This document shows, piece by piece, positions 651 through 15,710 of a DNA stretch of 32,207 nucleotides (position 1 is its first letter; every line of letters starts with the position of its first letter). This DNA is from a virus: UHGV virus genome UHGV-1442421. One strand, written 5' to 3'. Made by a program: the position numbers and the translations under genes. The notes below the pieces were generated by a model, which worked only from the letters and a program-made list of their open reading frames with translations, did not search any database and was not told the DNA's origin.

Positions 651-1981
651 TGTCCGTTCCTGTAAATAATTTTCTGACCAGTTTTAGGATTTTTCGCGGT
701 CATACCTTCTCGAAATGTTTGACCGCCAGATGTTGCTTGTTGTGTCTGTTGTTGCGCAGGCTGCTGAATATCTTCATACAGCTTGGCTTTTCTGGATTGC
801 AATTGCTTAGTTAGTCCGCTGGGGAGAGAATCTCCATAAGTTGAAAGATAATCATCCATTTGCTGATTAAACTTTTCGCCTTCAGTATTTGCCATCAGTT
901 TTGAGGTGTTGATTAAGTCTTGGACTTGCTCATTATTCAGCATCTTGCCGTTAGATAATTGGCTAACATAGTTACCAAGTGTGCCGAATATTCCATCAGT
1001 GCGTTTTACCTGCACTTGCTCACCTTCGCGTACCACAGATTGCGGATCCAGCGATTTCATATAGTTGAAAATCATTCCCAACTGCGCGGCTGGAGTGTTG
1101 CGCTTCCCAAGGGCTTGTAGGTTGTCAGCAGCACTGCGCATTGCAGAATAATTCTTTGAGAACCCATTAATATCACTATTCAGATCTCGAACAAGTTTTG
1201 GGTCAATCTTTCCGCTTTCCTGTTGTTTCATCCCTAATTCCTGCAACTTCAGGGCTACGTTATCATTATGCATTTGTGCCCGCTGAGCCCTGTCTAGTTG
1301 AGCGTTTTGGATATTTGCCCATCCTCTCGCGTTCTCCATGTCAGCCTGACGGATGCTTTCATCCAATCGCCCTTTCTCAAGTTGGCGACCAACCATCTTG
1401 TCCTGAACATTGAAGTAATCAATAGGACCAAGAGCAGCCATCCCAAGGTGATCAACAAACTCACCAAATCCTGAAGGATTCTGCTGATACATCTGAGCAA
1501 CGTTATTAGGGTCAACACCGACGCGAGTAAGTTCCTTGGCGTTGTTTTGCAGCCATGATTGCATTGCTTCTGGAGACGATGACGCAAGGCGTGCGCCAGC
1601 CGCTAAGGTGCCGATAGAATTGCGCTGGTCTTCGTCTGCCCACTTCATACCAGACTGAATCTTCTCTAATTGACCAGGATATTTGGTCATCAGATCTCGC
1701 ACCTGTTGCCGATCACCTGACTGGATGGCTGCCGCATATTCTTTTTGGAATGCAGCATCCGCTTCCTGTTGCTTTGCGGCTTGATATGTTTGAGCGACAC
1801 TACCAAGCCCCTGCAACGCCTGAAGGCCGATGTTATTGCGACCTGAGCGCTCCATTTCGTTGTTCTGGCGAATATAGGCCAACACCTCACTTACATCACT
1901 TGCCTTTGGCGCATTTGAGTTTTGCCCACCGATACCAGCAAGAAAACCGCCTGAGTTGATTCCTTGTTGCCAAGTAGCCAT
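635..1981 (-). CDS. DNA ejection protein, P22 gp20-like (448 aa)
   Basis: ORF track; SD AAGGTGG before ATG at 1981; size and position after the gp7-like gene. Confidence 0.7.
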   Translation of the reverse strand: MATWQQGINSGGFLAGIGGQNSNAPKASDVSEVLAYIRQNNEMERSGRNNIGLQALQGLGSVAQTYQAAKQQEADAAFQKEYAAAIQSGDRQQVRDLMTKYPGQLEKIQSGMKWADEDQRNSIGTLAAGARLASSSPEAMQSWLQNNAKELTRVGVDPNNVAQMYQQNPSGFGEFVDHLGMAALGPIDYFNVQDKMVGRQLEKGRLDESIRQADMENARGWANIQNAQLDRAQRAQMHNDNVALKLQELGMKQQESGKIDPKLVRDLNSDINGFSKNYSAMRSAADNLQALGKRNTPAAQLGMIFNYMKSLDPQSVVREGEQVQVKRTDGIFGTLGNYVSQLSNGKMLNNEQVQDLINTSKLMANTEGEKFNQQMDDYLSTYGDSLPSGLTKQLQSRKAKLYEDIQQPAQQQTQQATSGGQTFREGMTAKNPKTGQKIIYRNGQWQPM

Positions 1982-13269: not shown

Positions 13270-13728
13270 TCATCGAAGGCATTGCGTCCTGATGTATTCC
13301 TGCAGGTAGTTAACCTGCGCGGTTATCCTGTCGATTCCACTTCGGAGACGGTAATAATTGAGTTCAGCATCTGCTGTAAGTCTTGGGCTTTCTCCATCGC
13401 CCATGCTGCTGGCTCCGGTCGTTGACTTTGCACAGGTGGCGGCGACTTGCAGGCGCTTACGACCAGCAGAAACATCAGCACGGAGACTTTCGATAGTCGC
13501 GTTAGCATCAGCAAGCTCCTTTGTGTATCTGGCGTCAAGTTCTGCAACATCACGCTGACGCTGCTGCATGTCAGAGATGGTGGCGGTCGCCTGCTTCAGC
13601 TCACTGACTTTTTTATCACGCTGTTCTTTGTAGGCGATGGCATTATCACGGTAATGATTAACAGCCCATGACAGGCAAACGATGATGCAGATAACCAGAG
13701 CGGAGATAATCGCGGTTACTCTGCTCAT
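13270..13728 (-). CDS. Rz: Spanin inner-membrane subunit Rz (152 aa)
   Basis: N-terminal TM segment and coiled-coil; near-identical to lambda Rz as I recall it; start overlaps R stop. Confidence 0.85.
13323..13508 (-). CDS. Rz1: Spanin outer-membrane lipoprotein subunit Rz1, embedded in the Rz +1 frame (61 aa)
   Basis: Internal ATG at 13508 gives a signal peptide ending ...LLVVSAC, then a proline-rich region; embedded arrangement as in lambda. Confidence 0.65.
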
Positions 13729-14201
13729 ACCTCAATCTCTCTGACCGCTCCGCCAGCCTCTTTGAATTTTGCAATCAGGCTGTCAGCCTTATGCTCGAAC
13801 TGACCATAACCAGCGCCCGGCAGTGAAGCCCAGATATTGCTGCAACGGTCGATTGCCTGACGGATATCACCGCGATCAATCATCGGTAAAGCGCCACGCT
13901 CCTTAATCTGCTGCAATGCCACAGCGTCCTGGCTTTTCGGAGAGAAGTCTTTCAGGCCAAGTTGCTTACGGTAGGCATCCCACCAACGGGAAAGAAGCTG
14001 GTAACGTCCGGCTGCTGTTGATTTGAGTTTGGGGTTTAGCGTGACAAGTTTGCGAGGGTGATCGGAGTAATCAGTGAATAGCTCTCCCCCTACAATGACG
14101 TCATAACCATGATTTCTGGTTTTCTGCCGTCCGTTATCAGTTCCCTCTGACCACGCCAGCATATCAAGGAACGCCTTACGTTGATTATTGATTTCCACCA
14201 T
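13725..14201 (-). CDS. R: Endolysin (lambda R-type lytic transglycosylase, 158 aa)
   Basis: Translation recognised as lambda R ([24 protein letters not shown]...); same length. Confidence 0.9.
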
Positions 14202-14508
14202 CTTCTACTCCGGCTTTTTTAGCAGCGAAGCGTTTGATAAGCGAACCAATCGAGTCAGTACCGATGTAGCCGATAAACACGCTCGTTATATAAGCGAGAT
14301 TGCTACTTAGTCCGGCGAAGTCGAGAAGGTCACGAATGAACCAGGCGATAATGGCGCACATCGTTGCGTCGATTACTGTTTTTGTAAACGCACCGCCATT
14401 ATATCTGCCGCGAAGGTACGCCATTGCAAACGCAAGGATTGCCCCGATGCCTTGTTCCTTTGCCGCGAGAATGGCGGCTAACAGGTCATGTTTTTCTGGC
14501 ATCTTCAT
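14185..14508 (-). CDS. S: Holin (lambda S-type, 107 aa, dual-start MKM)
   Basis: Translation recognised as lambda S with the MKM dual-start motif and hydrophobic segments. Confidence 0.9.
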
Positions 14509-14754
14509 GTCTTACCCCCAATAAGGGGATTTGCTCTATTTAATTAGGAATAAGGTCGATTACTGATAGAACAAATCCAGGCTACTGTGTTTAGTAATCA
14601 GATTTGTTCGTGACCGATATGCACGGGCAAAAAGGCAGGAGGTTGTTAGCGCAACCTCTTGCCACCCGCTTTCACGAAGGTCATGTGTAGAAGGCCGCAG
14701 CGTAACTATCACCGATGAATTCATGATAGCCAGTGGCTACGGCTCAGTTTGGGT

Positions 14755-14880
14755 TGTGGCGGCCGGAATCGAACCGGCTTCCATCGGTGCGCTGCCGATT
14801 GCAGTACGCGCGGCGGGCAGCTACATGACTAGTATTTTCACTATCGCCTATCTGCTAGCTCGCCATTGAGCTTCACCACA
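14755..14880 (-). other. Degenerate tRNA-like element: canonical T-arm and 3' acceptor, candidate 5' acceptor and D-arm about 100 nt upstream, non-canonical anticodon loop
   Basis: Minus-strand GCCGG-TTCGATT-CCGGC (14762..14778) then CGCCACA; candidate partner TGTGGTG (14874..14880) and D-arm GCTC..GAGC; no encoded CCA. Confidence 0.3.
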
Positions 14881-14950
14881 ACGATAAGAGCACTCGGTGC
14901 ATTTAAGCCAAGCCCCATAAGGGAGAATGCTCTTACCTGTTGTGCAAACG

Positions 14951-14980
14951 CAAAAAGCCCCGAGCTATTAACTCAGGGCT
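14951..14980 (-). terminator. Intrinsic terminator, tR'-like, ending the short PR' leader transcript
   Basis: Minus-strand hairpin AGCCCTGAG / CTCGGGGCT (one G-U pair) followed by TTTTTG. Confidence 0.6.
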
Positions 14981-15015
14981 TTATTTAACGAGTGCATTTA
15001 TCCATCGTTGAGTCA

Positions 15016-15044
15016 AATTTACCCAACTTTATTCAAAAAGTCAA
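15016..15044 (-). promoter_or_regulatory. Late promoter PR' (-35 TTGACT, 17-bp spacer, -10 TAAATT) with overlapping Q-utilisation region
   Basis: Read on minus strand just downstream of Q; matches the lambda PR' motif as I recall it. Confidence 0.6.
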
Positions 15045-15086: not shown

Positions 15087-15710
15087 CTAACGTGTGACCG
15101 CATTCAAAATATTGTCTGCGATTGACTCTTCCTTGTGGCATTGCACCACCAGAGCGTCATACAGCGGCTTAACAGTGCGTGACCAGGTGGGTTGGGTAAG
15201 GTTTGGGATTAGCATCGTTACAGCGCGATATGCGGCGCTTGCTGGCATTCTTGAATAGCCGACACCTTTGCATCTTCCGCACTCTTTCTCAACAACTCTC
15301 CCCCACTGCTCTGTTTTTGCTATATCAACCGCACGACCTGTACCGTGGCAATCTCTGCATCTTGCGCCTGGCGTCGCGGCACTACGGCAATAATCCGCAT
15401 AAGCGAATATTGCGAGCACTTGCAGTACCTTTGCCTTAGTATTTCCTTCGAGCTTTGCCACACCACGGTATTTCCCCGATACCTTGTGTGCAAATTGCAT
15501 CAGATAGTTGATAGCCTTTTGTTTGTCGTTCTGGCTGAGTTCATGCTTGCCGCAGAATGCAGCCATTCCGAATCCGGCTTGTGATTGCGCCATCCCCATA
15601 GCAGCCATCACATCAGTACCGGAAAGAGAGTCAGAAGCCGTAGCCCGTGGTGAGTCGCTCATCATCGGGCTTTTTGGCGAATGAAATTTAGCTACGCTTT
15701 CGAGTCTCAT
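15087..15710 (-). CDS. Q: Late antiterminator Q (lambda type, 207 aa)
   Basis: Translation recognised as lambda Q throughout (MRLESVAKFHSPKSPMMSDSPRATASD...). Confidence 0.9.
   Translation of the reverse strand: MRLESVAKFHSPKSPMMSDSPRATASDSLSGTDVMAAMGMAQSQAGFGMAAFCGKHELSQNDKQKAINYLMQFAHKVSGKYRGVAKLEGNTKAKVLQVLAIFAYADYCRSAATPGARCRDCHGTGRAVDIAKTEQWGRVVEKECGRCKGVGYSRMPASAAYRAVTMLIPNLTQPTWSRTVKPLYDALVVQCHKEESIADNILNAVTR

Follow-up and report, generated by a model that had tools for sequence, protein, structure and literature searches.

The segment at positions 14951..15044 (minus strand) of the virus genome UHGV-1442421 is very probably an ordinary late-gene switch of the P22/HK97/HK022 form, carried by a P22-like prophage. 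Here, the window denotes the whole 32,207-nt stretch of DNA that was analysed. The P22/HK97-type PR'-tR' leader is already known as a textbook Q-dependent late switch. Public records have carried annotations of this form since the early 2000s, and the present locus adds little to it. An initial annotation of the segment, made from the sequence alone, had pictured an unusual lambda derivative; instead, the segment is the standard leader of phages P22, HK97, HK022, HK544, and mEp235. The one unusual local feature is a recombination joint, at which a downstream leader of the lambda/HK75 type follows a P22-type terminator.

Relative to the lambda map, the window runs in the opposite direction, and the order from Q to Rz is read on its minus strand. 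A gene encoding a 207-aa antiterminator of the Q-lambda family (15087..15710, minus strand; Pfam PF03589, 189.6 bits) lies directly upstream of PR', with a distance of 42 nt from the Q stop codon to the -35 hexamer. The encoded protein is identical to lambda Q at 205 of 207 residues (99%) and to P22 gp23 at 201 of 207 (97%). The first late genes downstream of the switch are S, R, and Rz (13270..14508, minus strand), which were recognized as ORFs with lambda-type matches and annotations: the S holin at 14508..14185, the R endolysin at 14201..13725, and Rz at 13728..13270. Beyond Rz, the same strand carries P22-like terminase, portal, scaffold, and coat genes, and the nearest complete phages are the P22-like coliphages HZ41, IME10, and APC_JM3.2. 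Inside Q, on the opposite strand, there is also a CII/C1-type site TTGC-N6-TTGC (15410..15423, plus strand), followed about 230 nt later by a terminator-like hairpin (15647..15665, plus strand) that runs antisense to the 5' portion of Q. Together, the two match the P a23 / t a23 antisense unit (lambda paQ) annotated in P22-pbi.

The late promoter PR' (Plate; 15016..15044, minus strand) is identical at all 29 positions to the P22-pbi feature 'P late or P R''. It consists of a -35 hexamer TTGACT (15044..15039), a 17-nt spacer containing the predicted Q-binding element, and a -10 hexamer TAAATT (15021..15016), which is the organization of a sigma-70 PR' to which Q would bind between the two hexamers. 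The bare TTGACT/TAAATT consensus is found at chance level (three sites vs. 3.0 expected in 3 kb), whereas the 43-nt PR'-qut-pause sequence, from the -35 hexamer through AACGATGG, occurs once in the window with 0 occurrences expected. From -45 to -1, the window is identical to HK544 at 45/45 positions and to lambda at 43/45; the spacer TTTTGAATAAAGTTGGG differs from that of lambda at two positions and is identical in P22 and HK544. The qut site as delimited in P22-pbi (-16..+14; P22 37871..37900) corresponds through the alignment to 14996..15025 (minus strand). A -10-like putative sigma-dependent pause element, AACGAT, occupies +1..+6 of the initial transcribed region (15009..15004, minus strand) and is identical to its lambda and P22 counterparts, as is the whole of AACGATGG.

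Position +1 was set at the first A of AACGATGG, that is, at window position 15009, which corresponds to the nucleotide annotated in P22-pbi as '5'-nucleotide of P late RNA' (37887). By the same rule, the lambda start falls at 44587. Between +1 and +23, the window and lambda agree at 19 of 23 positions and differ at +9, +11, +15, and +17, so the pause may differ from that of lambda at +16/+17. The start, the pause, and the 3' end of the transcript are predicted here by transfer from homologous phages.

The intrinsic terminator tR' (t late; 14954..14982, minus strand) was identified from the fold and from the P22 annotation, and has 13 predicted pairs. Its core stem is formed by GCCCTGAG (14979..14972) and CTCGGGGC (14964..14957), with an AAA/UUU extension and a U-run at 14956..14952, giving the layout of an A-tract, a GC stem, and a U-run; the latter contains only five U and is followed by GCG. 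The terminator (14982..14954 plus T5) lies past the pause site and ahead of the first late gene. The leader folds with -23.3 kcal/mol, compared with a mean of -11.8 for shuffled sequences (z = -4.27), and none of 200 shuffles was as stable. Among the IMG/VR matches listed, 64 copies of this leader have a variable loop and an essentially fixed stem, with one variant turning a U.G pair into U-A. No covariation was obtained for the hairpin from these 64 copies, which differ mostly in the loop and show single-sided changes in the stem. They are too alike for compensatory changes, and support for the hairpin thus comes from thermodynamics and the P22 annotation rather than from covariation.

Counting from +1 at 15009, the 5' arm of the hairpin starts at +27, the last base of the stem is +53, and the U-run covers +54..+58, so the predicted terminated leader RNA is about 58 nt long (14952..15009, minus strand), with its 3' end placed by the fold. 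This is close to the original estimate of a terminator about 55 nt after the start. Applied to lambda, the same +1 rule places the U-run at +188..+193, in agreement with termination at +193 as published (PMC4914094) and with a 6S RNA of ~194 nt (bioRxiv 10.1101/2024.10.31.621285). The initial annotation was therefore right in describing a leader far shorter than lambda 6S RNA (about 58 vs. 193–194 nt), as well as in recognizing PR' with TTGACT/TAAATT and a close hairpin terminator, all of which are present on the minus strand.

A focused BLAST search revealed that HK544 and mEp235 are 100% identical to the window over 105 nt, from the promoter to GCGTTT. Over the PR'-terminator segment, the identity is 99.1% for HK97, 98.1% for HK022, and 97.2% for P22. 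Together, BLAST and a four-way alignment also detected the segment in mEpX1/2 and in many Salmonella P22-like phages, and +1..+64 and the terminator stem are common to P22, HK97, and HK022. P22 (AF527608) shares with the window the Q family, the promoter, the qut site, the stem, the U-run, and the distance from start to terminator; within the leader, only the bases of the hairpin loop differ (TTAATAG in the window, TTTAACCG in P22). At the homologous bases, the P22-pbi record (AF527608) annotates Plate/PR', a 'qut site (gene 23 protein utilization site)', and the 5' nucleotide of the RNA, and it describes the terminator as 'antiterminated by gene 23 protein action... t late or t R''. For HK544 and mEp235, the records list the promoter together with a 'lambda Qut site with 2 bp mismatch', and phage Emek carries annotations of a qut site and a rho-independent terminator at the same place. 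It has been reported that lambda and P22 Q are interchangeable 'type 1' antiterminators (PMC8022706), and that P22, lambda, 21, 82, and phi80 produce a short late-promoter RNA regulated by antitermination (PMC7547250, citing Roberts et al. 1976).

The promoter, the qut site, AACGAT, and the terminator are all present; the Q antitermination arrangement has been kept, as initially proposed, and Q dependence in this prophage would be expected from homology. The mechanism established for Q-lambda involves a sigma-dependent pause, binding of Q to the Q-binding element, NusA-aided loading, and a nozzle at the RNA exit channel (PMC9388147, PMC4914094). By this scheme, sigma-70 RNA polymerase would initiate constitutively at PR' (window 15009) and would pause a few nucleotides later, when sigma rebinds the -10-like AACGAT at +1..+6. 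If Q is absent, the hairpin and its U-run would end transcription after ~58 nt, the short RNA would be freed, and the lysis and head genes would stay silent. Once accumulated, Q would bind its element in the promoter spacer and load onto the paused polymerase together with NusA. The loaded Q would then act as a nozzle on the RNA exit channel and block formation of the terminator hairpin, so that the antiterminated polymerase could read past tR' and transcribe S, R, and Rz as well as the morphogenesis genes. In the Q-lambda complex, RNA threads the Q torus at 12–16 nt (PMC9388147). The 5' arm of the hairpin begins only at +27, and a 58-nt leader would thus be fully compatible with this mechanism.

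It had also been suggested that the short leader arose by an internal deletion or replacement, and the comparison with lambda supports the latter only. The flanks are indeed lambda-like: besides the matches at -45..-1 and +1..+23 given above, the sequence after the T-run, GCACAACAGGTAAGAGCATT (14945..14926, minus strand), is identical at 20/20 positions to lambda +200..+219, as the initial annotation had noticed, and begins at +65 in the window and at +200 in lambda. These flanks, together with the 205/207 identity of the Q proteins, would suit a lambda 6S region shortened by ~135 nt through internal deletion, with the hairpin as a remnant of lambda tR'. However, the leader body is unrelated: the local alignment of window +24..+58 with lambda +24..+193 scores 14, compared with 12.6 +/- 2.0 for shuffles, 28% of which score as well, and the best lambda match is only a generic TCGGG..TTTTT terminator shoulder. 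Furthermore, P22, HK97, HK022, and HK544 carry the identical segment as a discrete allele, followed there by another downstream flank. The features of the lambda 6S region (a ~194-nt body, the lambda tR' hairpin, and the start of orf-64, which in lambda lies inside this region) were not found in the window, and orf-64 is absent. The shuffle-controlled local alignment thus refutes an origin by deletion from lambda, and the hairpin is almost certainly not a remnant of lambda tR'; the dissimilarity of +24..+58 to the lambda leader points to replacement. In summary, lambda resembles the window in its near-identical Q, in PR' (two changes in the spacer), in AACGAT, in the 20 nt after the terminator, and in S/R/Rz, but differs in its 193–194-nt leader with an unrelated body, in a tR' hairpin that is distinct and more complex, and in orf-64.

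Two further readings concern where the RNA ends and what it does. A second terminator-like hairpin with a T-run (GAGGTTGCGCTAACAACCTC then CTGCCTTTTT; 14659..14637, minus strand) is conserved in lambda, HK75, and HK544. If this were the real stop, the leader would be about 370 nt and the hairpin at 14982..14954 would not be controlled by Q. The lambda counterpart (45035..45056), however, lies past the mapped tR' at +193, indicating that the downstream hairpin is not tR' in lambda. In addition, the proximal hairpin is the stronger one, and it is this hairpin that the P22 record labels t late and the Emek record labels a terminator. A true terminator farther downstream is therefore very unlikely. 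The same downstream hairpin lies ~130 nt upstream of S. A Hfq-bound lambda RNA of ~63 nt, LPR2, has been described as 'close to 6S in the late operon', with coordinates not given (bioRxiv 10.1101/2024.10.31.621285); the hairpin at 14637..14659 may represent its 3' end. The other reading, which is compatible with the late switch, is that the ~58-nt terminated RNA also serves as a trans-acting, Hfq-binding sRNA in lysogens, similar to StxS. PR' is active constitutively, and lysogens of other lambdoid phages accumulate the terminated RNA. StxS arises at the same place and controls rpoS and stx1 (PMC7547250), and lambda 6S RNA is bound by Hfq with few targets (bioRxiv 10.1101/2024.10.31.621285). 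The window RNA itself has an A/U-rich stretch (UAAAUAAA) adjoining a terminator hairpin with a U tail. On the other hand, its first 23 nt are held by the qut/pause function and the rest is almost all terminator, leaving little free sequence for a seed, and a 2026 survey of P22 small RNAs reported ten species, none of them at this position (PMC13397905). Like the window RNA, StxS is short and terminated just past a constitutive, Q-controlled late promoter (PMC7547250), but it has demonstrated trans targets; no sequence kinship is claimed. A role as an sRNA is thus considered unlikely. By analogy, action in trans on host or prophage mRNAs via Hfq might make P22- and lambda-type leaders alternative regulatory RNAs that are swapped as cassettes, which seems quite unlikely as well.

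The P22-type late switch remains the preferred reading, and its short leader is widespread. Among the 119 IMG/VR matches listed that carry a lambda-type qut/pause sequence, 64 contigs have the short (P22-type) and 55 the long (lambda-type) leader, and no leader of intermediate length was detected in this sample. GenBank phage records include 77 short and 30 long leaders, and the 5,426 complete E. coli genomes contain at least 275 short versus 413 long ones. The two forms are about equally common. Short leaders are the rule in other Q types also: in phage L, the first tRNA gene starts 46 bp past the late start (PMC8022706); StxS of Shiga-toxin phages is 74 nt (PMC7547250); and in HK75, the annotated pR' and Tr' are separated by about 10–50 nt and fall within a stretch of about 80 nt. 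The 194 nt of lambda represent a long outlier.

A scan of assembled genome contigs for the qut pattern gave 23 additional matches (L126..L148), which were left out of this census as probable contamination. The lambda-type leader was found in 22 of them; many are low-coverage contigs and several are ~48.4 kb in size. They are labelled as Pseudomonas, Shewanella, Oceanobacillus, Bradyrhizobium, Kitasatospora, and others, and the lambda qut matches in these unrelated genera probably reflect contamination of the assemblies with lambda DNA.

The window departs from its closest relatives at the 3' edge of tR'. Alignments and a census of junctions placed a mosaic joint at 14926..14951 (minus strand), where P22-type sequence ending in GCGTTT passes into a module of the lambda/HK75 type beginning with GCACAACAGGTAAGAGCATT. 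HK544, mEp235, HK97, and HK022 all part from the window right after GCGTTT. In P22, the terminator is followed by TAAGCACG..., whereas the window has the lambda/HK75-type GCACAACAGG...; this flank, in which the window lacks the P22/HK97-type sequence, is outside the switch proper. The combination of a short leader and a lambda-type flank is absent from the phage record collection, and the joint of the window, a minority form, was found in three further IMG/VR loci (among the matches listed) and in 38 complete E. coli genomes. A prophage in E. coli E21845/O/A (L006; NZ_CP076272, 2964..3933) has the same PR'-leader-terminator-GCACAACAGG joint with 131/131 identical positions; its Q-S spacer is 969 nt vs. 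579 nt in the window, and the content of its downstream leader differs again.

Leader type and downstream module assort fairly freely. Among the IMG/VR matches listed, the short leader is joined to a P22-type flank in 49 loci, to a lambda-type flank in four (including the window), and to two other flank types in four and two loci, respectively. The long leader is followed by variants of the lambda-type flank in about 40 of these loci, by a tRNA-containing module in 12, and by a P22-type flank in one. HK75, compared at 1133..1213 with 14926..14960 of the window, is homologous to the window over the whole downstream module from the T-run onward. It differs from the window in having an unrelated Q of the Q21 family (PF06530), its own promoter, a phage-L-type Q-binding element (AATTATCCATTTAGCC), and its own short leader and hairpin. 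Late cassettes of the phage L/21 type (Q21 family) are known to be distinct from the Q-lambda type (PMC8022706). That a Q21 cassette is joined to the same downstream module indicates that the 3' edge of tR' is a recurrent mosaic boundary, and the joint represents ordinary lambdoid mosaicism.

About 70 nt past the terminator, within the antiterminated late leader, the window contains a tRNA-derived RNA element of ~133 nt (14750..14882, minus strand). Its structure was predicted by RNAalifold from 18 nonredundant copies. A 9-bp acceptor stem (14882..14874 with 14761..14753) is followed by CCA (14752..14750) and encloses a cloverleaf with a D-arm that has GG in its loop (14872..14857), a long arm of three helices where the anticodon arm would be (14855..14802), an extra hairpin ATCGG-CAGCGCA-CCGAT at the position of the variable arm (14799..14783), and a T-arm with UUCGAYU (14778..14762). 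Covariation is strong: in the 18 copies, 97.4% of cells pair, vs. 31–47% when the partners are slid, and 13 pairs are changed on both sides, a number reached in none of 500 shuffles; both figures come from the same alignment from which the structure was derived. A second scan was anchored on the D-arm rather than on the central block, which removed the ascertainment bias, and it revealed compensatory changes in the extra hairpin (ATCGG/CCGAT, ATCAG/CTGAT, ATTGG/CCAAT, and ATAGG/CCTAT).

The element was detected in 92 phage records and in 164 E. coli genomes, for the most part within leaders of operons subject to antitermination. Most copies have a Q gene with its tR' on one side and a holin gene on the other. 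In nine cases, the element stands 20 nt upstream of an N-like gene and follows a gene for a CI-like repressor; in sixteen, it comes after an HNH-endonuclease-like ORF; and one copy is in the tail region of a Skatevirus. The same slot is occupied by true tRNA genes in Kapi1, Sf6, and L. Lambda (44858..44940; L001/L290) has in this slot an 83-nt segment with a different interior, whose closing stem covaries with the acceptor stem of the window (TTGTGCTG/CAGCACAA in lambda vs. TTGTGGTG/CGCCACAA in the window), and the same C-CCA-AAC follows both.

With default settings, ARAGORN reported no tRNA or tmRNA in the window; with lowered thresholds, it reported a 132-nt 'tRNA with 38-nt intron'. The copy from a Pantoea phage matched Rfam RF00005 with 37.4 bits (gathering threshold 29), fitting the model as a class II tRNA whose anticodon loop carries a 45-nt insertion. 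The element does not have the 5-bp anticodon stem and 7-nt loop of a canonical tRNA, but the acceptor, D, T, and extra arms are present and covary. Identity as a tmRNA was rejected, as the Rfam score was 20.2 bits against a gathering threshold of 47 and only the T-arm and the 3' half of the acceptor stem matched. The Pas sRNA, described in a preprint, was also considered and proved unrelated to the tRNA-like element. No description of the element was found in Rfam 15 or in the literature searched on tRNA-like elements in lambdoid phage leaders, and it is apparently undescribed.

The apex of the long arm carries the hexamer ACTAGT (14833..14828, minus strand). At this single alignment column, each of the 64 distinct copies has a self-complementary hexamer, and seven versions of it occur (ACTAGT, TCTAGA, TCGCGA, GCTAGC, ACCGGT, TCCGGA, and, with G.U pairs, TCTGGA), and no other unforced palindromic column was observed among these 64 copies. 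Such a hexamer cannot pair with itself inside one molecule, and the sequence pattern therefore suggests that two molecules pair loop to loop (kissing). Less likely, the hexamer could be a DNA palindrome recognized by a dimeric protein.

The tRNA-derived element is more interesting than the leader, and the verdict on PR'-tR' is unaffected by it. The 194-nt leader of lambda is not the norm for phages with a lambda-type Q; the 58-nt form occurs no less often, and neither annotation pipelines nor readers should call it aberrant. Q cassettes as unrelated as Q-lambda and Q21 attach to interchangeable downstream leaders at the 3' edge of tR'.
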